Part shown: one piece after another, positions 3,657 to 12,882 of the stretch
Layout: each line of letters starts with the position of its first letter
How positions within the stretch are numbered: position 1 is the stretch's first letter
Assembly (NCBI GenBank): GCA_938041325.1
Contig: CALIAG010000387.1
Coordinates: 1-13,084, forward strand
Origin: an uncultured Saprospiraceae bacterium
Lineage (GTDB): Bacteria; Bacteroidota; Bacteroidia; Chitinophagales; Saprospiraceae
DNA length: 13,084 bases
Reading direction: 5' to 3'
Notes under the pieces: model-generated
Databases searched by the model: none
The model's input: the letters and a program-made list of their open reading frames with translations, nothing else
What the model was told of the DNA's origin: nothing
Program-made: the position numbers and the translations under genes

Positions 3657-4283
3657 ATGAACAATGAAGCGCAACATTCAAATGATATAGGTCTTGATAA
3701 ATTGATTTCAAAAGCTAAAAACAATTCAGCTAAAGACATGTATGACACCAAAAAAGAACCAAGAAAATCAATGGGAGTCTATTTGAAAAATCAAAATAGA
3801 CTCATAATGAATTCAATTGCGATCGCAGATAAAAAAGCAGCAATTTTGATTAGAATAAACACTGCAATAATATCTGCTTTAATTGTATTTGAAAGTTACT
3901 TTGAAAATACATCTTTTAATAATCAAATTATACCAATACTAATTATTGGGCTTTCTATTTCATTGATTTTTGCCATTCTCGCAGCAAAACCTTTCAGCTA
4001 TATTATGTATAAAGTTTTTAATAAAATCATCAAAAAGAAATATCCAAATTTAGAAGAAAATAACTTCATGATTTTTGAAGTACCAGAATTTGAGAAGTAC
4101 GAATTATCAATGCAAAAGGTTTTAAAGAGTCAAAACTTACAAATTGGTAACCTTACTAGATTTAATTATTTTATGAGCAAAAGCATCTCTAGGAATTACT
4201 TACAACTAGAAATTGCTTACACTGTTTTTTTAATTACATTCTTAATAGTTGCTGTTTTCTATATAAGTTCAAACTACTTTTAG
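3657..4283 (+). CDS. Hypothetical membrane protein with three predicted TM helices (208 aa); function unknown
   Basis: ATG start. The hydrophilic N-terminus of about 60 aa is followed by two adjacent hydrophobic helices (AAILIRINTAIISALIVF; IIPILIIGLSISLIFAILAA) and a third at the C-terminus (AYTVFLITFLIVAVFYI). No recognizable catalytic motif. Confidence 0.6.
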   Translation: MNNEAQHSNDIGLDKLISKAKNNSAKDMYDTKKEPRKSMGVYLKNQNRLIMNSIAIADKKAAILIRINTAIISALIVFESYFENTSFNNQIIPILIIGLSISLIFAILAAKPFSYIMYKVFNKIIKKKYPNLEENNFMIFEVPEFEKYELSMQKVLKSQNLQIGNLTRFNYFMSKSISRNYLQLEIAYTVFLITFLIVAVFYISSNYF

Positions 4284-5081: not shown

Positions 5082-5756
5082 ATGAAAAATACCATTCAAC
5101 TTACTGTAGATGCCGTCGTGTTTGGATACGAGTCGGGAAATATTTCCGTGCTACTAGTGAAACGTAAATACGAACCATATAAAAACGCATGGGCATTGCC
5201 AGGAGGCTTTGTGCTAGAAAATGAAAATCTTGAACAAGCCGTGGAAAGAGAGCTCTCTGAAGAAACCGGTGTAAAGATCAACTATCTCGAACAGTTGTAT
5301 ACGTTTGGTGATGTAGCACGTGATCCTAGGGGCAGGGTCGTATCGATAGCCTATTTTGGGTTGGTTAAACCAAATGCGTTTAAACTGCATGCATCGACCG
5401 ATGCCCAGAAGGCCGAGTGGTTCAATATCGCTCAACTACCAAAACTGGCCTTTGACCATAAAAAGATTGTACAAATTGCCATTGAAAGGCTTCAGGGAAA
5501 GATTACCTATGAACCTATTGGCTTTGAATTACTAGATAAAAGGTTTCCTTTTTCCGATTTAGAGAAATTGTATACAACCTTGTTGGGCAGGGAAATAGAT
5601 CGGCGAAATTTCAAAAAGAAAATTACAAGTCTAAAGGTATTAGACGAATTAGACGAGAAGGTTTCTAAAGGGCGAGGCAGGCCTGGCAGTCTTTTTAGCT
5701 TCAATCAAAAGCGTTATTTCCAACTTAAGAAAGCGGGAATCATCTTCGAAATATAA
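5082..5756 (+). CDS. nrtR: NrtR-like Nudix-related transcriptional regulator (N-terminal Nudix fold plus C-terminal winged helix), 224 aa
   Basis: Nudix box GGFVLENENLEQAVERELSEETGV (the GX5EX7REUXEEXGU pattern). The C-terminal ~80 aa are basic and wHTH-like (KKKITSLKVLDELDEKVSKGRGRPGSLFSF). It is positioned directly upstream of nadV-prs, as in described NrtR regulons (established knowledge). Confidence 0.75.
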   Translation: MKNTIQLTVDAVVFGYESGNISVLLVKRKYEPYKNAWALPGGFVLENENLEQAVERELSEETGVKINYLEQLYTFGDVARDPRGRVVSIAYFGLVKPNAFKLHASTDAQKAEWFNIAQLPKLAFDHKKIVQIAIERLQGKITYEPIGFELLDKRFPFSDLEKLYTTLLGREIDRRNFKKKITSLKVLDELDEKVSKGRGRPGSLFSFNQKRYFQLKKAGIIFEI

Positions 5757-5796
5757 CCCTTTTTAGTCGTGTCAAAATTTAATTTGCGTAAAAAAA

Positions 5797-5855
5797 ACAC
5801 AAAATAGGTTGTGTGTTGAAAAAGCGCATATTATATTTGTGTCATAATTACACAA
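5797..5855 (+). promoter_or_regulatory. Candidate promoter and operators of the NAD-salvage operon: -7 box TAtaTTTG (5832-5839) overlapping inverted repeat TTGTGT-N7-ACACAA (5837-5855); a second everted ACACAA-N8-TTGTGT site lies at 5797-5816
   Basis: Palindromes seen directly. They are placed in the 221-bp gap between the nrtR-like gene and the nadV-like gene. TAnnTTTG is the Bacteroidetes -7 consensus. Confidence 0.45.
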
Positions 5856-5977
5856 ATAAATGATATTTGAAAGAGAGACTAAATGTGGGAATTGAATTTT
5901 AAATATTACGAGATTAATAGCGTTATGTTTCAATATTAGAGGCCCATATTTCCAATAATAAATAAAAATCGAAAATT

Positions 5978-7432
5978 ATGAACGGATTACTACTCACCGA
6001 TGGATATAAGACCGGACACCACCAGCAATACCCAAAAGGAACAGAAGAAGTATATTCTAACTGGACACCTAGAAGTAACAAATACGCACCAAAAGGCTGT
6101 GACAAAGTACTTTCCTTTGGACAACAATATGTGATGCAGTGGTTGCATGATTATTTTGAGGATAATTTCTTTTCAAAACCAAAAGCATCCGTTTGCGATG
6201 AAATAAAAACCGAATTATCATTATACCTTAATGCGGACTATGATGTGACACATTTCGAAGATTTGCATGACCTGGGTTATTTGCCCATTCGAGTGAAGTC
6301 TCTAGACGAAGGGGTCGAGGTTCCCATTCGCGTGCCGATGCTAACGGTAGTAAACACCGATCCTAAATTTTACTGGGTCACCAATTTTCTTGAAACTATA
6401 TTATCGACCATGTTGTGGTTGCCCATGACCTCGGCTTCCATTGCATTGACCTATAAACGTATTTTCAAAAGATGGGCCTTAAAAACAGATGCCGAAAATA
6501 TAGCTTTTATTGATTTTCAAGGGCACGATTTTTCAATGAGGGGCATGGGTGGTCTTCAAAGTGCAGTAGCTTCGGGCATGGGTCATGCGGCCGTATTTTT
6601 AGGATCCGATACGTTGCCGGTGATTCACGGACTTCGAAAGTATTATGAAGCGGAAGGCTTTGTAGTTGGATCTGTGAACGCTACCGAGCACTCCGTAATG
6701 TGTGCTGGCACCAAAGATGATGAAATAGGTACGTTTCGACAGTTGATGAAAACCTACCCCACGGGAATTTTATCTGTAGTGAGTGATACCTGGGATTTAT
6801 GGAAAGTGCTAACGGAGTACCTTCCAACATTAAAAGAAGAAGTATTGGCCCGCGATGGTAAACTGGTGATACGCCCCGATAGCGGTGACCCTGTTGATAT
6901 TATCTGTGGAACAAATACTCAAATGAGTAAGGGCACTCCGGTTGAAAAAGGAGTTGTCGAATTACTTTGGGATGTTTTTGGGGGAACAACGAACAAGGAG
7001 GGCTTTAAAGTATTAGACCCACATATTGGAGCTATTTATGGTGACAGTATCACCACAACACGTGCTGCGGATATTTGTCAACGATTGCATGACAAAGGTT
7101 TTGCCACAACCAATGTGGTATTGGGTATTGGTTCGTTTACCTATCAATTTAATACCAGGGATACCTTCGGGTTTGCTATGAAAGCTACTTCGGTAGTAGT
7201 TGACGGCGCGCGCAGGGAAATTTTCAAAGACCCTATTACAGATGACGGCGTAAAAAAATCTGCAAAAGGATTAATTCGGGTCGATAAAGTAGATGGCGAT
7301 TATGTGTTGGTTGATGAAGTAACGGAAGCAGAAGAACAAAATGGGGAATTAAAGGTGATTTTCGAAGACGGCAAGTTCGTACATAAAACCGCTATAGAAG
7401 AAATTAGGGCTCGAATAAACGAACGGGTTTAG
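5978..7432 (+). CDS. nadV: Nicotinamide phosphoribosyltransferase family protein (NadV/Nampt; possibly the Namat-type NAD-reconstitution enzyme), 484 aa
   Basis: The N-terminus LLLTDGYKTGHHQQYP and the overall length are typical of NadV/NAMPT. It is followed by a prs homolog as in nadV-prs operons. Confidence 0.9.
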   Translation: MNGLLLTDGYKTGHHQQYPKGTEEVYSNWTPRSNKYAPKGCDKVLSFGQQYVMQWLHDYFEDNFFSKPKASVCDEIKTELSLYLNADYDVTHFEDLHDLGYLPIRVKSLDEGVEVPIRVPMLTVVNTDPKFYWVTNFLETILSTMLWLPMTSASIALTYKRIFKRWALKTDAENIAFIDFQGHDFSMRGMGGLQSAVASGMGHAAVFLGSDTLPVIHGLRKYYEAEGFVVGSVNATEHSVMCAGTKDDEIGTFRQLMKTYPTGILSVVSDTWDLWKVLTEYLPTLKEEVLARDGKLVIRPDSGDPVDIICGTNTQMSKGTPVEKGVVELLWDVFGGTTNKEGFKVLDPHIGAIYGDSITTTRAADICQRLHDKGFATTNVVLGIGSFTYQFNTRDTFGFAMKATSVVVDGARREIFKDPITDDGVKKSAKGLIRVDKVDGDYVLVDEVTEAEEQNGELKVIFEDGKFVHKTAIEEIRARINERV

Positions 7433-7454
7433 TGTAGCATTTAAAATTTTCAAT

Positions 7455-8213
7455 ATGAAATACGAAATAAAAAAATTTAGGGACGGACAGGTAGCTGCAA
7501 AAATTTTGGAAGAAGGCGATCTTGAAGTCCGCATTCGCGGGAATAGTTATGAAGACCTGTTTGCCATCGCAGCTATAAAGGACGCCTGGGATGCTGAGCA
7601 TAGTATGAACAAGACGGCTACGGCACGTTTAACGATATATTGCCTTATAGGGCAGCGATCCGATAGGCGTTTTAATGCAAAAGAATCTTTTGACTTAAAA
7701 GTGATAGCAAACTTCATTAATTCGATGGGTTTTGATAAGGTAGAAATTCTACATCCGCATAGTCCCATCTCCTTGGCTTTGATAGAAAACTCTAGTAAGT
7801 TATCCCATTTTCAATACGTTCAAAAAACCTTTGAAGCTATTGGAAACCCTGTTTTGGTAAGTCCGGATGCCGGGGCTTACAAAACCACCCATGAAATCGC
7901 TGAAAAGTTGGGAGCTGATTTGGTCCCCTCAAATAAAGTTAGGGTCGATGGCGCACCACAAATAAGTATTCAGGGAGATGTAAAGGATAAAGATTGTTTG
8001 ATTGTTGATGACTTGGCAGATGGGGGTCGAACCTTCAAGTTTTTGGCAGCAGCCTTAAAAGAACAAGGCGCGACAAGGGTGTATTTGTATGTGACGCATG
8101 CCCAATTCAATTATGGTTTTGATGAGTTGAAAGAGACCATTGACCATGTGTATTGCACCAATAGTTACAAGGATATTGATGATGAATTTGTGACGCAATA
8201 TAAAATTGTATAA
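7455..8213 (+). CDS. prs: Short ribose-phosphate pyrophosphokinase (Prs) homolog (possibly Adps-like), 252 aa
   Basis: Aligns to Prs along its length: FRDGQVAAKILEEGDLEV vs Prs FSDGEVSVQINENVRG; VLVSPDAGAYKTTHEIAEKLG vs [20 protein letters not shown]; the PRPP-binding loop DCLIVDDLADGGRTFKFLAAALKEQGATRVYLYVTHAQF vs [39 protein letters not shown]. It lacks about 25 N-terminal residues relative to canonical Prs. Confidence 0.85.
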   Translation: MKYEIKKFRDGQVAAKILEEGDLEVRIRGNSYEDLFAIAAIKDAWDAEHSMNKTATARLTIYCLIGQRSDRRFNAKESFDLKVIANFINSMGFDKVEILHPHSPISLALIENSSKLSHFQYVQKTFEAIGNPVLVSPDAGAYKTTHEIAEKLGADLVPSNKVRVDGAPQISIQGDVKDKDCLIVDDLADGGRTFKFLAAALKEQGATRVYLYVTHAQFNYGFDELKETIDHVYCTNSYKDIDDEFVTQYKIV

Positions 8214-8334
8214 AGTTAGTAAGGTGCCAGAAGAACTTGTTGTGAGTGATGGGGATGGTGTAAGTTTCCGGATACGACGTATCACAAGTTCAAAGTTTGG
8301 AAGAATTGATTGCCGATCTTAAAAAGAAAATGAG

Positions 8335-8889
8335 ATGAAATATTCACTGGAATTGGTCAAACAACAATTTGATTCGAATGAAAATATGAAATTCTTGTTC
8401 TTCTGGGGACATACCCCTGCCAAGGACGGTTCGGTGACCAAAAGCTGTTTCAGTCAATGGTGGAAAGCATCTTTTAGTAAAGAAGGTGAAACCTACAAAA
8501 CTGCAGAACATTTTATGATGGCCGAAAAGGCGCGTTTGTTTCAAGCTTTGGAAATAAGAGATGAAATTATAGCCTGTGAACATCCCGCAGCAGCTAAAAA
8601 ATTAGGGCGCAAGGTGAAAGGTTTTGATGCTGATATTTGGGACGAACATAAGTACGCCATCGTAAAAGAAGCAAATATGCTAAAGTTTTCGCAGCATGAC
8701 GCTTTAAAAGACTTTTTAGTAAACACAGGAAGTAGAATTCTGGTCGAGGCCAGTCCGGTAGATAACATCTGGGGGATTGGTTTGGCGCAAGACGACCCAA
8801 AGGCCCAAAACCCTCATCTATGGCAAGGTGAAAACTTACTTGGTTTTGCGTTGATGGAAGTTCGTGATCAATTAATTAAGAATCTATGA
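8335..8889 (+). CDS. NADAR-domain protein (YbiA/DUF1768 family, NAD and ADP-ribose related), 184 aa
   Basis: Family hallmarks: FLFFWGH..SQW, AEHFMMAEKARLF, LGRKVKGFD..W, ILVEASPVDNIWGIGL. The stop overlaps the next start (ATGA at 8886-8889). Confidence 0.85.
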   Translation: MKYSLELVKQQFDSNENMKFLFFWGHTPAKDGSVTKSCFSQWWKASFSKEGETYKTAEHFMMAEKARLFQALEIRDEIIACEHPAAAKKLGRKVKGFDADIWDEHKYAIVKEANMLKFSQHDALKDFLVNTGSRILVEASPVDNIWGIGLAQDDPKAQNPHLWQGENLLGFALMEVRDQLIKNL

Positions 8890-9422
8890 AAAAATATGCG
8901 GCGCTCTTCGGAGGTTCTGGAAACGATACGAATTCCAAAGAGTATCTTGAAACAGTTGAAATAGGTTCTTTTTTGACCAAACAAGGTTATATAGTAAAGA
9001 ACGGTGGATATGGCGGCATGATGGAAGCAGTTTCAAAAGGAACGACCGAATCCGGTGGCAGCGCAATTGGAGTTACATGCAAACAAGTGGGTCCTGCCGA
9101 GGGAAACCAGTATTTATCAGAGACGATAGTTACTGAGAAATTGTATGACAGACTCAAATTGTTGATCGAAAACACTACGGTTTTTATTGTACAGCGAGGT
9201 GGCATTGGAACACTTTCCGAGGTTTTTTTGGCTTTGGATATTATTCGGAAAGAGCCCAAATTATGGCAGCCTAAATTATATTTTGTGGGATACATTTGGA
9301 ATGATGTAGTGGCTTCTTTGAAAGCAACTTTAATTCCGGAGTACGAGCATGATTTATTTCAAATCGTAAAAGATTCCGAAGAACTATATCAACGAATATG
9401 TATAGATTTTCCTAAAAACTAA
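8886..9422 (+). CDS. LOG-family (TIGR00730, lonely-guy-type) Rossmann-fold nucleotide N-glycosidase-like protein, 178 aa
   Basis: Motifs GGYGGMMEA (GGGxGxMxA) and RGGIGTLSE (PGGxGTxxE) characteristic of LOG/SLOG proteins. Translationally coupled to the NADAR gene. Confidence 0.85.
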   Translation: MKKYAALFGGSGNDTNSKEYLETVEIGSFLTKQGYIVKNGGYGGMMEAVSKGTTESGGSAIGVTCKQVGPAEGNQYLSETIVTEKLYDRLKLLIENTTVFIVQRGGIGTLSEVFLALDIIRKEPKLWQPKLYFVGYIWNDVVASLKATLIPEYEHDLFQIVKDSEELYQRICIDFPKN

Positions 9423-9457: not shown

Positions 9458-10558
9458 CTATTTATTGACGGAGAAAATCTCCTTCAATTGTTTTACCATA
9501 CCCCCGTTTCCAGAGACGGTAATCTCGCCGATTTTCTCGGCGATCTTCTCCACGTATTCCATTTCCTTCAGTTTGAAGAGCATTTCGTTGTCTTCCATCA
9601 GTTTTGCGGTGTTCAGCAAGCTTCTGGTAGACGCCGTTTCTTCACGTCGGGTAATGATATTCGCTTGGGCTCTCTTCTGAGCCACCAAAACTTGGTTCAT
9701 GATATCCTTCATTTCACCGGTTAGGATCACGTCACGAATACCGCAACTCAAAACTGCAACACCCAATTGGGTGGCCGCTGTCTTGATATCACCGAACACA
9801 GCTTCCGCGATGCTTTCTTTTCGCTCTAGAAGTTCATCTAGCGTATAGGTGCCGATATACGCACGCAATACCAACTGCATTGCAATGTACAACTGCTTCT
9901 CGTAGTCTTTGCTACCCAGCAAAGCCTTTTCGATATCGATAACCTTATACTGCGTATAGAAGTTGATACGAATGGCGGCCTTGTCTTTGGTCAGCAGTTC
10001 TTGACCAGAAATCTCCAATTGCAATTGACGCATATCCGCCTTGGCAATTTTGATAGGGATGTCATTTTTCCAGAAATGGTAGGTACCACTTTCCAGCGTT
10101 TTGACATAAACATCATCGACCAAAAGGACTGCTTTTTCATATGCCGCAACTTCCAAAACACGAACGTAAGTACGCAATTGTGCATGGCTCAACATCGCTT
10201 TGCCAATAGCCTCGGTGATATAGATCTTACTCAAATCGGCCATCACGAACTTGTAGTTCATCAAACCTTTCCAGAAGGCGTATTTACCGGCTGTAAGTAC
10301 TTGCTTCAAGTTTCCGTTTTCGGAAACCAAAGCCAGTTCAGCATCTTTTACTTCGATGATATGCAACATAGCATCCAAGCCTTGGTCCTGTAGCAAGATT
10401 TCTAATGCTATAGGAGCAACAAAGGCTTTGGTAAGGTCATAAACCTTAACCATATTTCTAAAGCCTACCCAATGCGTACCTTGGGTAATCACTTTTTGGT
10501 AGTCGCCTCTTTTAAAGACCAAACCTACTTTTCCTGCATTGATTCTTACTCTTTTCAT
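9458..10558 (-). CDS. SPFH/band-7 (stomatin/prohibitin/flotillin-like) domain protein, 366 aa
   Basis: SPFH-like core (LTKDKAAIRINFYTQYKVID, LRAYIGTYTLDELL) followed by the A/E/R-rich coiled segment typical of the family (QKRAQANIITRREETASTRS). Convergent with the NAD-salvage operon. Confidence 0.8.
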   Translation of the reverse strand: MKRVRINAGKVGLVFKRGDYQKVITQGTHWVGFRNMVKVYDLTKAFVAPIALEILLQDQGLDAMLHIIEVKDAELALVSENGNLKQVLTAGKYAFWKGLMNYKFVMADLSKIYITEAIGKAMLSHAQLRTYVRVLEVAAYEKAVLLVDDVYVKTLESGTYHFWKNDIPIKIAKADMRQLQLEISGQELLTKDKAAIRINFYTQYKVIDIEKALLGSKDYEKQLYIAMQLVLRAYIGTYTLDELLERKESIAEAVFGDIKTAATQLGVAVLSCGIRDVILTGEMKDIMNQVLVAQKRAQANIITRREETASTRSLLNTAKLMEDNEMLFKLKEMEYVEKIAEKIGEITVSGNGGMVKQLKEIFSVNK

Positions 10559-10905: not shown

Positions 10906-10936
10906 GGAGATCAGTTTTAAAAGATGATCGGCTTTA

Positions 10937-10981
10937 GGCTACATTATGAGTGTAGTGCTCTACCAACTGAGCTAAAGGGCC
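10937..10981 (-). pseudogene. Orphan 5' fragment of a tRNA with anticodon CAT (Met/Ile2-type): acceptor, D-arm and anticodon arm only
   Basis: Minus strand reads GGCCCTT-TA-GCTC-AGTTGGTA-GAGC-A-CTACA-CTCATAA-TGTAG-CC, then continues TAAAGCCGATCATC with no T-arm. Confidence 0.7.
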
Positions 10982-10989
10982 TAAAAAAG

Positions 10990-11055
10990 TGGCCTCTTGC
11001 AGGAGTCGAACCTGCGCGTCCTTCTGTTGTTCTAACCTAACTGAACTACAATCCC
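10990..11055 (-). pseudogene. Chimeric/degenerate tRNA remnant: 5' acceptor and D-arm of one tRNA (GGGATTG...) joined to a T-arm/acceptor of another; the anticodon arm is missing
   Basis: Minus strand: GGGATTG-TA-GTTC-AGTTAGGTTA-GAAC-A, then ACAGAAGGACGC, then GCAGG-TTCGACT-CCTGC-AAGAGGCC-A. The 3' acceptor strand cannot pair with the 5' strand. Confidence 0.55.
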
Positions 11056-11061
11056 ATTTGG

Positions 11062-11087
11062 GACTGATGGGATTCGAACCCATGACT
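11062..11087 (-). pseudogene. Orphan tRNA 3' fragment (T-arm plus acceptor: ATGGG-TTCGAAT-CCCAT-CAGTCCC-A); possible att-site remnant
   Basis: A canonical T-loop GTTCGAATC with the 3' acceptor strand but no upstream cloverleaf. Its acceptor (CAGTCCC) would pair with the GGGATTG 5' fragment that follows 3 nt later, suggesting tandem copies that are each partly deleted. Confidence 0.55.
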
Positions 11088-11089
11088 CA

Positions 11090-11400
11090 CAGAGTGGTGA
11101 TTGTTTTTTGGAAAACAATCGAAACCATCAAGTCAAGTTGTACATGAAGACAGTATACCTCTCGGCAAAACTCCATACAATAGTGCCCTACAGAAACACC
11201 CAACAAGACCCGCTTGATATCTTTATTCCCGCAAAGGCGGGAATCTCTATTTTAATGAACTTTTGTAAAAGCCTCACAACACTCCTTGTTGTTATGAGGC
11301 ACTACCACAAACTATGTTTTCACAAGCTTGTTTTTAATTACATGACAAAACTGAAACAGTACTACGCAATTATTATGCGTAGTTAAAATTTCTTTTGTTT
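11090..11400. other. About 310-bp noncoding, hairpin-rich segment of unknown function between tRNA-Arg and the tRNA fragments
   Basis: Hairpins: gattgtttt-ccaa-aaaacaatc (11090-11112, 9-bp stem); ttcccgc-aaag-gcgggaa (11226-11243); cctcacaaca..tgttgttatgagg (11271-11300, bulged); actacgca-attattat-gcgtagt (11361-11383, 8-bp stem followed by tttcttttgttttt on the plus strand). The only ORF (11108-11386, plus strand) has no RBS and atypical composition. Confidence 0.4.
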
Positions 11401-11404
11401 TTAG

Positions 11405-11477
11405 TAGGAGTAGCAAGACTCGAACTCGCATTTCTAGGTTCGTAGCCCAGCGTTCTATCCAATTGAACTATACTCCT
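11405..11477 (-). tRNA. tRNA-Arg (anticodon ACG), 73 nt, canonical
   Basis: Minus strand AGGAGTA-TA-GTTC-AATTGGATA-GAAC-G-CTGGG-CTACGAA-CCTAG-AAAT-GCGAG-TTCGAGT-CTTGC-TACTCCT-A. All four stems pair. Confidence 0.9.
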
Positions 11478-11478
11478 A

Positions 11479-11555
11479 TGGTGGAACAGACAGGACTCGA
11501 ACCTGTATCGTCGAATCTTCAATCCGCCGCATTGACCATCTTTGCTACTGTTCCC
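11479..11555 (-). tRNA. tRNA-Phe (anticodon GAA)-like with an encoded CCA and an extra 5' G; the D and anticodon stems each carry one mismatch
   Basis: Minus strand (G)GGAACAG-TA-GCAA-AGATGGTCA-ATGC-G-GCGGA-TTGAAGA-TTCGA-CGAT-ACAGG-TTCGAGT-CCTGT-CTGTTCC-A-CCA. Only 1 nt separates it from tRNA-Arg. Confidence 0.7.
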
Positions 11556-11558
11556 TCT

Positions 11559-11634
11559 TGGGGTGTACTCCGGGACTTGAACCCTGTTCCTCCCATTCAC
11601 AGCGGGGCGCTTTACCAGATAAGCTAGAGACACC
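11559..11634 (-). tRNA. tRNA-His (anticodon GTG)-like with G-1:C73 and an encoded CCA, but mismatches in the lower acceptor stem and the T-stem (possibly degenerate)
   Basis: Minus strand G(-1)-GTGTCTC-TA-GCTT-ATCTGGTA-AAGC-G-CCCCG-CTGTGAA-TGGGA-GGAA-CAGGG-TTCAAGT-CCCGG-AGTACAC-C-CCA. Mismatches at C5/T68, C7/A66 and A50/G64. The D-arm is perfect and G-1:C73 is the established His identity element. Confidence 0.6.
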
Positions 11635-11646
11635 ATTTTAGAGATT

Positions 11647-11795
11647 TTTTTGAAAGGTGTCGATTATTTTTCTACGTCCCTTTTTGCGCCCCACGTTGTT
11701 AAAATTTTCTAGCGTAGCTATGGCTATGCTGGAAAATTTTGCCTAGTTGCGCACCAAAAGTGAACTGTACAAATTCTAATCACACCTTTCAAAAC
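11647..11795. mobile_element. MITE-like ~150-bp element bounded by ~19-bp terminal inverted repeats (ttttgaaaggtgtcgatt ... aatcacacctttcaaaa), inserted between tRNA-His and tRNA-Gln
   Basis: Left arm 11647-11666 and right arm 11776-11795 are reverse complements (18/19 with a 1-nt indel). The interior is AT-rich with no ORF. It is the only large spacer in an otherwise tightly packed array. Confidence 0.45.
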
Positions 11796-11803
11796 AGTCT
11801 CTG

Positions 11804-11875
11804 TAAACCCGAAAGGATTTGAACCTTTACAACAAGAATCAAAATCTTGTATGCTAACCGTTACATCACGGGTCT
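11804..11875 (-). tRNA. tRNA-Gln (anticodon TTG), 72 nt
   Basis: Minus strand AGACCCG-TG-ATGT-AACGGTTA-GCAT-A-CAAGA-TTTTGAT-TCTTG-TTGT-AAAGG-TTCAAAT-CCTTT-CGGGTTT-A. Confidence 0.85.
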
Positions 11876-11900
11876 ATTTGCAAGCCTAACAAGATTTGAA

Positions 11901-11920
11901 CCTGCCTGCCGGCAGGCAGG
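11901..11920. repeat. Perfect 20-bp palindrome CCTGCCTGCC/GGCAGGCAGG, the same hairpin as in repeat copies 1 and 2, sitting inside a 130-bp non-tRNA spacer (11881-12010)
   Basis: acctgcctgccggcaggcagg is near-identical to 4452-4473 and related to 413-433. The neighbouring hairpin ttattt-c-aaataa is at 11965-11977. Confidence 0.6.
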
Positions 11921-12031
11921 CTCATATCTCAGGGTTAGAAATGCTTTTCTGCATTCACGAACTCCTTATTTCAAATAAAATGAGCATGAGCTAAATCCTG
12001 CGTGCTATCCATTACACCATAAGCTTAATTG

Positions 12032-12148
12032 TACCCCACCCAAGATTCGAACTTGGACTTGAAGGATTTTAAGTCCAGAACTTCGTTCGGTGCCTTCGCA
12101 GAAACTGTGTTTCTGCTCGTCAATCTCTGCCAGTTGGGCTAGTGGGGC
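12032..12148 (-). ncRNA. 117-nt tRNA-like element: perfect tRNA 5' and 3' ends (7-bp acceptor, canonical T-arm) enclosing about 45 extra nt that form three hairpins; possibly an interrupted tRNA or a novel tRNA-like RNA
   Basis: Minus strand GCCCCAC-TA-GCCCAACTGGCAGAGATTGACGA-[GCAGAAAC-aca-GTTTCTGC]-GAAGGCA-[CCGAAC-gaa-GTTCtGG]-ACTTAAAATCCTTCAAGT-CCAAG-TTCGAAT-CTTGG-GTGGGGT-A. The acceptor is GCCCCAC/GTGGGGT. The segment CTGGA-CTTAAAA-TCCTT resembles a weak anticodon arm (TAA). Confidence 0.5.
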
Positions 12149-12153
12149 ATTTG

Positions 12154-12226
12154 TACAGGGAGAGAGATTCAAACTCTCAGAGTACTGGTTCTAAGCCAGC
12201 TGCGTTTGCCATTTCGCCATCCCTGC
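12154..12226 (-). tRNA. Noncanonical tRNA with Leu anticodon TAG but a class-I (short variable arm) structure and A73
   Basis: Minus strand GCAGGGA-TG-GCG-AAATGGCAAA-CGC-A-GCTGG-CTTAGAA-CCAGT-ACTCT-GAGAG-TTTGAAT-CTCTC-TCCCTGT-A. All stems pair. The variable region is 5 nt, whereas bacterial tRNA-Leu normally has a long variable arm. Confidence 0.65.
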
Positions 12227-12230
12227 ATTG

Positions 12231-12303
12231 CTGAGGCATTAGGATTCGAACCTAAAACTTCCGTGTTAACAGCACGGTACTCTACCTATTGAGTTATACC
12301 TCA
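12231..12303 (-). tRNA. tRNA-Asn (anticodon GTT), 73 nt, canonical
   Basis: Minus strand TGAGGTA-TA-ACTC-AATAGGTA-GAGT-A-CCGTG-CTGTTAA-CACGG-AAGTT-TTAGG-TTCGAAT-CCTAA-TGCCTCA-G. Confidence 0.9.
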
Positions 12304-12308
12304 CTTTG

Positions 12309-12380
12309 TACTCTGTAGGGGAATCGAACCCCTATTTCCTGATAGAAAGTCAGGCGTACTAACCGTTATACGAACAGAGC
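12309..12380 (-). tRNA. tRNA-Glu (anticodon TTC), 72 nt
   Basis: Minus strand GCTCTGT-TC-GTAT-AACGGTTA-GTAC-G-CCTGA-CTTTCTA-TCAGG-AAAT-AGGGG-TTCGATT-CCCCT-ACAGAGT-A. Confidence 0.9.
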
Positions 12381-12384
12381 AAAT

Positions 12385-12483
12385 GTCTGAGAAGCAAGAT
12401 TGACTTCGTCTTTCTTGCAACTACTCCTTGTTAATCAAATTCGAGTAAACTTGATTTGATTAAGTCGTCTGAGAAGCAAGATT
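12385..12483. repeat. 17-bp direct repeat gtctgagaagcaagatt (12385-12401 and 12467-12483); the second copy is the 3' end of tRNA-Pro, the first an orphan copy 82 bp away (att-like duplication)
   Basis: The exact 17-mer occurs twice. The spacer between them contains the inverted repeat aatcaaat...atttgatt (12434-12461). Confidence 0.65.
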
Positions 12484-12539
12484 CGAACTTGCGACCTTCC
12501 GCGTCCAAGGCGGGTAAACAACCACCGTTATCTTCCCAG
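12468..12539 (-). tRNA. tRNA-Pro (anticodon TGG) with a C1-G72 start (as in E. coli tRNA-Pro) but G8 and an irregular D-arm
   Basis: Minus strand CTGGGAA-GA-TAAC-GGTGGTTG-TTTA-CCCGC-CTTGGAC-GCGGA-AGGTC-GCAAG-TTCGAAT-CTTGC-TTCTCAG-A. The anticodon loop is CTTGGAC. The T-arm and acceptor pair, but the D-stem is weak. Confidence 0.65.
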
Positions 12540-12544
12540 TTTTG

Positions 12545-12617
12545 CAGTACCGACGGGACTCGAACCCGTACCTTCCCGATAGACAGTCGGGCGCTCTAGC
12601 CTTTGAACTACGGTACT
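12545..12617 (-). tRNA. tRNA-Asp (anticodon GTC), 73 nt
   Basis: Minus strand AGTACCG-TA-GTTC-AAAGGCTA-GAGC-G-CCCGA-CTGTCTA-TCGGG-AAGGT-ACGGG-TTCGAGT-CCCGT-CGGTACT-G. Confidence 0.9.
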
Positions 12618-12620
12618 TTG

Positions 12621-12703
12621 TGGAAGTAGTAGGACTTGAACCTACATGTCATTTCTGAACCTGATTTACAGTCAGGCGAGCCAGCCAATTGCTCAATACT
12701 TCC
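12621..12703 (-). tRNA. tRNA-Tyr (anticodon GTA), 83 nt, class II with a long variable arm
   Basis: Minus strand GGAAGTA-TT-GAGC-AATTGGCTG-GCTC-G-CCTGA-CTGTAAA-TCAGG-TTCAGAAATGACAT-GTAGG-TTCAAGT-CCTAC-TACTTCC-A. Confidence 0.9.
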
Positions 12704-12711
12704 ATAATTTT

Positions 12712-12787
12712 TGGAGACAAGGATGAGATTCGAACTCATAAAAAACGGATTTGCAGTCCGCTACCTTAACCATTCAGCCACCTTGTC
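12712..12787 (-). tRNA. tRNA-Cys (anticodon GCA) with an encoded CCA; the D-stem is imperfect
   Basis: Minus strand GACAAGG-TG-GCTG-AATGGTTA-AGGT-A-GCGGA-CTGCAAA-TCCGT-TTTTT-ATGAG-TTCGAAT-CTCAT-CCTTGTC-T-CCA. The anticodon arm is identical in pattern to E. coli tRNA-Cys. Confidence 0.8.
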
Positions 12788-12795
12788 CATTTTTG

Positions 12796-12882
12796 CGGAG
12801 GGCAAAGGAATTGAACCTTCACTACCTTATGGTAGACTCGCTTAGCAGGCGAGCGCAACAAACCAGTATTTGCCTACCCTCC
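12796..12882 (-). tRNA. tRNA-Ser (anticodon GCT), 87 nt, class II
   Basis: Minus strand GGAGGGT-AG-GCAA-ATACTGGTTTG-TTGC-G-CTCGC-CTGCTAA-GCGAG-TCTACCATAAGGTAGT-GAAGG-TTCAATT-CCTTT-GCCCTCC-G. The variable-arm hairpin is CTACC-ata-GGTAG. Confidence 0.9.

Follow-up and report, generated by a model that had tools for sequence, protein, structure and literature searches.

The closest described counterparts of the gene examined here are the type I tRNAsLeu, in which a short variable loop stands in place of the long class II arm. Animal mitochondria and Streptomyces coelicolor are already known to have them (PMC6614811), and textbooks together with the 2019 Streptomyces study present bacterial short-arm tRNA-Leu as a rare exception served by an exceptional leucyl-tRNA synthetase (LeuRS). 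Here we describe a 73-nt tRNA-Leu(UAG) gene with a short variable arm, located at 12154–12226 on the minus strand of contig CALIAG010000387.1 from an uncultured Saprospiraceae bacterium (NCBI GenBank assembly GCA_938041325.1). The contig stretch of 13,084 nt was analysed over its whole length and is referred to below as the window. We consider, with a probability of about 70%, that this gene encodes a type I (armless) tRNA-Leu(UAG), that is, a leucine body that has lost its class II variable-arm hairpin. Such a tRNA is unusual but not unique, and the picture obtained for its whole family, together with the linkage to rtcB, prfH and a tRNA mimic, is more interesting than the single gene.

The S. 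coelicolor type I tRNALeu(CAA) resembles the tRNA of the window in being bacterial, in carrying a leucine anticodon and in having a 5-nt variable loop (PMC6614811). It coexists with class II tRNALeu genes, its U8-A14 contact matters for recognition, and its leucylation by a bacterial LeuRS has been demonstrated experimentally (PMC6614811), whereas for the tRNA of the window we infer charging. The Streptomyces gene is single, essential and chromosomal, has a CAA anticodon, and its A73 is no identity element for the cognate enzyme, ScoLeuRS (PMC6614811). In contrast, the gene studied here is accessory and array-borne, has a UAG anticodon and a short UAA partner, occurs in Bacteroidota and belongs to a family that conserves A73 and A15:U48; the two were compared by these features. 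Animal mitochondrial type I tRNALeu shares the short variable loop and A73 (PMC6614811) but is served by a dedicated mitochondrial LeuRS and often has a degenerate elbow, while the present family has a canonical elbow and is borne by bacteria and phages. With canonical class II tRNALeu(UAG), the tRNA of the window has in common the anticodon, A73, the 3-bp GCG/CGC D-stem, A14, A15, G18G19 and A15:U48; it differs in being devoid of the 10–15-nt variable-arm hairpin and in having U56.

Two further systems resemble the genomic setting. According to the study of long arrays (L-arrays), horizontally spread examples exist in Bacteroidetes, and in Anabaena translational stress induces such an array, whose regulation is shared with rtcB (PMC8421152). 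The array of the window is like these in comprising at least 10 co-oriented, putatively supernumerary tRNA genes, in its sporadic distribution, in its occurrence in Bacteroidetes and in its presumed tie to rtcB and translational stress. A term search of that paper returned no armless tRNA-Leu, and no rtcB-prfH, Y-RNA-like mimic or SPFH gene physically linked to an array. Phage tRNA clusters such as those of Vibrio phage 6E35.1a and Mesorhizobium phage Cp1R7A-A1 likewise contain 76–77-nt genes annotated as tRNA-Leu; in contrast, the window has no phage structural genes and its array is part of a module of bacterial chromosomal type.

The gene was placed at 12153–12226(−) by ARAGORN as tRNA-Leu(tag) and at 12154–12226(−) by the Rfam tRNA model RF00005, which was matched in full (model positions 1–71) with 61.5 bits (E=1.4e-11; the gathering score is 29). 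The encoded RNA, read as the reverse complement of the window, is GCAGGGA-UG-GCGA-AAUGGCAA-ACGC-A-GCUGG-CUUAGAA-CCAGU-ACUCU-GAGAG-UUUGAAU-CUCUC-UCCCUGU-A, with the anticodon UAG, the discriminator A73 and a 5-nt variable loop, ACUCU, ending in U48. The first-pass annotation of this stretch had pointed out the 5-nt variable region, the UAG anticodon, the acceptor, the anticodon stem and loop, the T-stem and A73, and all of these are present. It had also described the cloverleaf as fully base-paired. The stems do pair, although pairs 1-72 and 27-43 are G.U and the D-stem consists of three pairs (G10-C25, C11-G24 and G12-C23, giving GCG/CGC) with A13 and A22 unpaired. The minus strand, the two G.U pairs, the short D-stem and U56 were absent from that annotation. 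Judged from its sequence, the 3-pair D-stem is a Leu-type D-arm. In the T-loop, UUUGAAU, the near-universal C56 is replaced by U56; U8, A14, A15, U48, G18, G19 and U55 are all present, and U56 permits only a G19.U56 wobble. With 5 nt, the variable region falls outside class II, which is characterised by a variable arm longer than 10 nt that folds into a hairpin. It agrees with the type I tRNALeu of Fan et al. 2019, defined by a leucine anticodon, a 4–5-nt variable loop and a complete cloverleaf. The premise of the first-pass annotation that bacterial tRNA-Leu is class II was too strong, given the Streptomyces tRNALeu(CAA) (PMC6614811) and the short tRNA-Leu genes annotated in phages. Minimum free energy folding of the RNA alone gave the cloverleaf at −23.7 kcal/mol (z = −1.95), and a composite pattern of D-arm, anticodon loop and T-loop matched once in the window and never in 200 shuffles. 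The 3' CCA is not encoded, the trailer being CAA; CCA is present in 19 of the 112 family members described below.

This family was delineated with a pattern that fixed the Leu-type D-arm (UGGCGRAA..GGYARACGC), left the stems and the anticodon free and imposed the short-arm spacing to the T-loop; neither A73 nor U48 was imposed. A73 and U48, the latter giving A15:U48, were nevertheless each found in 112 of 112 unique short members, all of which have a leucine anticodon. When 60 diverse members were folded together with RNAalifold, the cloverleaf was recovered with compensatory double changes in 15 of its 20 pairs, which indicates that the family is under structural selection. Restricted to TAG and applied to one genome per species (185,579 species), the pattern returned 115 stretches, about 100 of them perfect cloverleaves. 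Their hosts are overwhelmingly Bacteroidota and mostly Flavobacteriia, including Chryseobacterium, Winogradskyella, Maribacter, Dokdonia, Aquimarina, Roseivirga, Saprospiraceae and Chitinophagaceae; outside this phylum, short Leu(UAG) genes were found in Sorangium and Polyangiaceae (Myxococcota).

The family also extends to viruses. A strict pattern, requiring the exact D-arm and the T-loop TTTGAAT, had given no match in viral contigs, and the looser pattern was then used. It matched 67 IMG/VR contigs; well-formed short Leu genes of the same type as that of the window are carried by 46 viral contigs. With the anticodon left free, 33 of 40 unique well-formed viral cloverleaves had leucine anticodons (TAG 13, TAA 12, CAA 4, CAG 3 and AAG 1), each of the 33 with A73. 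The other seven, with the same D-arm, comprise His(GTG) genes with C73, Asn(GTT) genes with G73 and Gln(TTG) genes with G73, save for one with T73. Viral loci with a non-leucine anticodon on the Leu-type 3-bp D-arm are L006, L018 and L028 (His), L012, L019 and L040 (Gln), and L021 and L061 (Asn). Most have the discriminator that their own isotype calls for. These phage tRNAs may have arisen from a Leu-like body by a change of isotype, or may be convergent. BLAST searches with the 73-nt tRNA gave no match to phages at E <= 1e-3 and none to E. coli genomes, this query being too short for the size of the databases; at E <= 10, weak phage matches appeared, and the nearest gene from a cultured phage is approximately 78% identical.

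The ancestry of the body was examined with anticodon-blind hidden Markov models (HMMs), one per isotype, built from 1,660 tRNAs of the fetched loci. For the 5' part (acceptor strand and D-arm, positions 1–26), the class II Leu model scored 15.3 bits and every other isotype 9.4 bits or less. More direct is the comparison offered by a Polyangium array (L131), which contains both a short Leu(UAG) gene and a long Leu(CAG) gene; leaving the variable region aside, the two are approximately 93% identical. Their sole structural difference is UUGGAU in the short gene versus GCCCGAGAGGGCGUU in the long one. Across the genome arrays, short and long genes number 131 and 14 for Leu, 1 and 74 for Ser, and 6 and 62 for Tyr: arm loss within arrays is confined to Leu, and Ser and Tyr keep their long arms. 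Based on the L131 pair and on the retention of long arms in Ser and Tyr, we conclude that the body of the window's tRNA is a class II tRNA-Leu minus its arm. Arm loss in Leu only also fits the known biochemistry, in which the arm is a determinant for seryl-tRNA synthetase (SerRS) and provides LeuRS mainly with binding energy. The long-arm region is important for SerRS binding according to the MenT3 study (PMC11541572), whereas for bacterial LeuRS deletion of the arm mainly lowers affinity and the arm is not read base-specifically (PMC2377443). The determinants of LeuRS are instead A73, U8-A14, A15-U48 and the G18G19/U55-C56 elbow, with the anticodon dispensable (PMC2377443; PMC6614811).

The first-pass annotation had offered three interpretations, an unusual leucine isoacceptor, a converted body and a decoy or regulatory tRNA, and it is the first that has stood. 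The Leu-type D-arm, A73, A14, A15:U48, the 112-member family with leucine anticodons only and the same-array pair of L131 all speak for it. Conversion of a Lys-, Gln- or Glu-type body by anticodon mutation, with mis-decoding of CUA, is not supported and was rejected in view of the 5'-part HMM (Gln 9.2, Lys 2.1 and Glu 1.7 bits, versus 15.3 for class II Leu), the L131 pair and the confinement of arm loss to Leu, and the same body type occurs with UAG, UAA, CAA, CAG and AAG anticodons. As separate observations, the genome arrays contain several oddities (e.g. at L160 2007–2077 and L139 602–675): six "Tyr" calls of less than 80 nt, the anticodon ATA among them, a Phe(AAA) gene, a call with a 4-base anticodon in L126, and Ile(TAT) genes.

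The gene lies in a same-strand tRNA array (11404–12882, minus strand) recognised from 11 ARAGORN genes and weak Rfam hits and syntenic with those of loci L085, L112, L121, L164 and L167. Its order is Ser(GCU), Cys, Tyr, Asp, Pro-like, Glu, Asn, Leu(UAG), a disrupted Leu(UAA), a tRNA-like remnant, Gln, His, Phe and Arg(ACG). Taken together, the 11 ARAGORN genes and three weaker tRNA-like matches, all on the minus strand, extend from about 10930 to 12882. With 11–14 same-strand genes in 1.5 kb, this is an L-array in the sense of many co-oriented, closely spaced tRNA genes of sporadic distribution. It aligns, flanks included, with the arrays of Maribacter (L085), Cellulophaga (L121) and related genomes; the recurrent order in Flavobacteriaceae is Ser-Ser-Cys-Tyr-Trp-Asp-Pro-Glu-Lys-Leu(UAG, 74 nt)-Leu(UAA, 75 nt)-Arg-Gln-His-Phe-Arg. 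Members of the family typically occur in arrays: within 2.5 kb of the short Leu gene, five or more tRNA genes of the same strand are present in 97 of 104 genome loci, and in 52 of the 104 a short Leu(UAA) gene adjoins the short Leu(UAG).

Several genes of the array are damaged. The adjoining short tRNA-Leu(UAA) gene (12032–12148, minus strand), identified by comparison with Leu(TAA) genes of sister arrays, is interrupted at the junction of D-stem and anticodon stem, where 48 nt (ATTGACGAGCAGAAACACAGTTTCTGCGAAGGCACCGAACGAAGTTCT, with an 8-bp hairpin) stand in place of GCAAA; sister arrays keep an intact 74-nt Leu(UAA) in this slot. The tRNA-Pro(UGG)-like gene (12470–12542, minus strand) was missed by ARAGORN and recognised from an Rfam score of 29.8 bits and from blastn: positions 12467–12620, which cover it and tRNA-Asp, are approximately 99% identical to a stretch of L112 and L164, and in L164 the matching position holds a Pro(tgg) gene called by ARAGORN. 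Within 12381–12542 (minus strand), the Pro-like gene is followed by an insert of approximately 70–95 nt bounded by a 16-nt direct repeat, ATCTTGCTTCTCAGAC, which duplicates the 3' end of the Pro-like tRNA; these repeats suggest that a small insertion here duplicated its target site. Lastly, a tRNA-like remnant (11876–12020, minus strand) occupies the slot held by Arg(UCU) in some sister arrays. It has tRNA-like 5' and 3' ends, a TTTCTAA loop and an interruption of approximately 55 nt, and contains a 22-nt perfect palindrome, GCCTGCCTGCCGGCAGGCAGGC. A 35-nt piece of it recurs elsewhere in the L085 array with 97% identity, which suggests a small repeat element invading tRNA arrays.

Several observations weigh against a functional leucine tRNA at this locus. 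The 3'-part HMM (T-arm and acceptor strand) was non-discriminating, with 13.1 bits for Gly, 10.3 for Cys and 4.3 for class II Leu, and the summed scores tie class II Leu with Cys; the isotype test is therefore partial support only, the D-arm half alone being informative. U56 is found in this copy alone among the 112 members, and the G19-C56 pair matters for the Aquifex LeuRS (PMC2377443), although a G19.U56 wobble may still form. The neighbouring genes are disrupted or carry insertions, so that selection on the array of the window may be relaxed. Because of U56 and these decayed neighbours, this particular copy may be weakened. Lastly, the Streptomyces type I tRNALeu(CAA), the only bacterial one tested so far, could not be charged by E. 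coli LeuRS, and the authors of that study considered ScoLeuRS to be exceptional (PMC6614811); on account of this failure, charging of the tRNA described here is put forward as an inference.

These points lend themselves to another explanation, in which the family is functional and the copy of the window is a decaying relic. U56 would weaken the elbow and recognition by LeuRS, the array would be eroding, and the tRNA would have little or no role in translation. We hold this to be unlikely, though it deserves to be taken seriously. In its favour are the uniqueness of U56, the 48-nt replacement in the adjoining Leu(UAA), the low score of the Pro gene with the repeat-flanked insert after it, the remnant with its palindromic insert in another slot, and the finding that disruption of G19-C56 abolishes charging in Aquifex (PMC2377443). 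Against it, copies from Maribacter, Cellulophaga and uncultured Flavobacteriaceae differ from that of the window at two positions only, U32 and C56, and all of its stem pairs are intact. Its Rfam score is on a par with those of its intact neighbours. Moreover, G19.U56 can pair, and the Aquifex enzyme requires pairing and not base identity, as the G19U:C56A exchange restored activity (PMC2377443); ScoLeuRS for its part tolerated deletion of U55/C56 in its type I substrate (PMC6614811).

In sister loci the arrays belong to a recurrent module: rtcB, prfH and orf184 come first, the tRNA array follows, and a Y-RNA-like tRNA mimic and an SPFH gene close it. The counts given here come from 8-kb loci and are lower bounds. 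In sister arrays the upstream same-strand genes are rtcB, prfH and orf184 (e.g. L167 4–2605 on the plus strand, and likewise L164, L121, L162, L082 and L096); the equivalent region lies just past the right edge of the window. Specifically, the RNA ligase RtcB (Pfam, 283 bits) is encoded upstream of the array in at least 15 sister loci, PrfH (230 aa, above the NCBIfam equivalog cutoff) in at least 10, and orf184, a conserved 184-aa open reading frame (ORF) without any Pfam or NCBIfam match, in at least 31. Ribosomes damaged by ribotoxins are rescued and repaired by PrfH and RtcB (PMC9304027, PMC9223846), and a PrfH subfamily of 225–250 aa is concentrated in Flavobacteriia (PMC12829566); the 230-aa PrfH of the sister loci has the size of this Flavobacteriia subfamily with a C-terminal tail. 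A term search of the PrfH papers found no mention of adjacent tRNA arrays.

Downstream of the array, the window encodes an RNA made of two tandem, circularly permuted tRNA-like domains of the Y-RNA-like, YrlA type (10939–11093, possibly from about 11130, minus strand), assigned from Rfam and from homologues. The Rfam YrlA match is sub-threshold (34.9 bits, E=2.9e-5); 28 sister loci contain homologues, among which four helices show compensatory changes. Each domain runs from a T-arm through a closed acceptor-like hairpin to a D-arm. The first is closed by a long-range helix of TCTGT (11093–11089) with ACAGA (11027–11023), and the second ends in an anticodon-arm-like hairpin, CTACA-CTCATAA-TGTAG (10955–10939). 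No Rsr/TROVE gene was found in the window. The Y-RNA-like RNA sits between the array and a gene for an SPFH/Band-7 protein, weakly HflK-like (9458–10558, minus strand; Pfam Band_7, 1.7e-25), which accompanies the array in at least 43 sister loci from Flavobacteriaceae, Weeksellaceae and Saprospiraceae with 43–96% amino acid identity.

Based on these features we propose the following course for an armless tRNA-Leu(UAG) in this setting. The array would be transcribed as one unit; a scan for sigma-70-type promoters, which is not designed for Bacteroidota promoters, stayed at chance (9 found versus 7.0 ± 2.5). RNase P and 3' processing would free the tRNAs from the transcript, and CCA would be added afterwards, since it is not encoded. 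LeuRS would then recognise the tRNA via A73 and the elbow of the D- and T-loops (U8-A14, A15-U48 and G18G19 with U55/N56), and the charged tRNA would decode CUA, and probably other CUN codons, as leucine; CUA makes up 11.4% of the leucine codons across the ORFs of the window. The array as a whole would be a reserve of tRNAs, supernumerary or kept as back-up; its linkage in sister genomes to RtcB, PrfH and the Y-RNA-like mimic suggests use upon damage to the translation machinery.

A more speculative extension, which we rate as rather doubtful, is that arm loss is an adaptation of mobile tRNA sets, escaping toxins or defence enzymes that recognise the class II arm, and that rtcB, prfH, the array, the Y-RNA-like mimic and SPFH are together a kit against attacks on translation, with armless Leu tRNAs as its damage-resistant decoders. 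An armless tRNA-Leu would stay chargeable under such a scheme because LeuRS, unlike SerRS, needs no arm. As candidates for the attackers, the nucleotidyltransferase MenT3 anchors on the long variable loop (PMC11541572), and the abortive-infection toxin AbiEii seems to favour class II tRNAs (preprint 10.64898/2026.01.19.700257).

It is improbable that the tRNA has a role outside translation, be it as a decoy or regulatory ligand or as a sponge or substrate on which tRNA-targeting toxins or repair enzymes act. The nearby Y-RNA-like tRNA mimic and the RtcB and PrfH genes linked to the array in sister loci would suit such a role, as would the failure of some bacterial LeuRS on type I tRNALeu. However, the anticodons of the family are limited to leucine triplets, the anticodon loop is canonical (Y32, U33 and R37), A73 and U48 are perfectly conserved, and the array neighbours are ordinary decoders for approximately 15 amino acids. 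A decoy has no need of a matched anticodon and acceptor identity, and the decoy or regulatory tRNA raised by the first-pass annotation found no positive evidence. Scarcely credible is a class I tRNA of another isotype, mutated to UAG and inserting a residue other than leucine at CUA: the short variable loop is typical of class I, Cys equals class II Leu in the summed HMM score and a few phage His, Gln and Asn tRNAs share the D-arm, but the body carries five leucine anticodons, and others only where the discriminator switches to the base of their own isotype, it has neither the G3.U70 of Ala identity nor the G-1/C73 of His identity, its anticodon loop is of the normal 7 nt, and the L131 pair is a case of direct descent from class II Leu. 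Yeast mitochondrial tRNA-Thr(UAG), which reads CUN, is a precedent for such a conversion, yet to our knowledge the UAG anticodon matches no anticodon-reading synthetase under the identity rules. A reassignment of CUN codons, as in yeast mitochondria, was rejected on the same grounds.

The leucine isoacceptor described here belongs to a set of at least 100 distinct short-arm Leu genes, with UAG, UAA, CAA, CAG and AAG anticodons, carried by phages and, in accessory arrays, by Bacteroidota and Myxococcota; A73 and A15:U48 are retained in every one. Should these tRNAs prove to be charged, type I substrates would have to be acceptable to many bacterial LeuRS and the picture of tRNA-Leu identity would be revised; the family would then be a natural test set for how LeuRS acts without the arm. 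The linkage to RtcB, PrfH and the tRNA mimic makes a back-up role of the arrays directly testable in culturable Flavobacteriia. For annotation, genes of the family should be named tRNA-Leu even where an isotype model may flag them as atypical. The literature on type I tRNALeu, short-arm phage tRNAs and Bacteroidetes arrays gave no account of the family beyond Streptomyces, and an earlier description in subscription journals is possible.

The remainder of the window is of bacterial type. A near-identity search of the array region against deposited phages gave only an 82-nt match to a tRNA-Tyr and no close phage relative. A phage origin was rejected, as the flanks encode ankyrin, AraC, PEBP, NrtR, NAMPT, PRPP-synthetase-like, NADAR and SPFH proteins and no structural phage genes. 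A NAD-salvage/ADP-ribose cluster (5082–9422, plus strand) encodes an NrtR-like Nudix regulator, NAMPT, a PRPP-synthetase-like protein, a protein with a NADAR domain and one that is SLOG/LOG-like. Its NAMPT matches PHROG 448 with 628 bits, and we take the cluster to resemble phage NAD-reconstitution gene sets. It is not conserved beside the sister arrays, save for a NADAR fragment in L112. An ORF of 208 aa at 3657–4283 (plus strand) gave a weak, sub-threshold match to PycTM, the Pycsar effector transmembrane domain (21.8 bits versus a cutoff of 27.2). Compared with plasmids, the whole window gave only a 126-bp match (1699–1824), 90.5% identical to a plasmid of Persicobacter sp. JZB09, which is probably a small repeat common to marine Bacteroidota.

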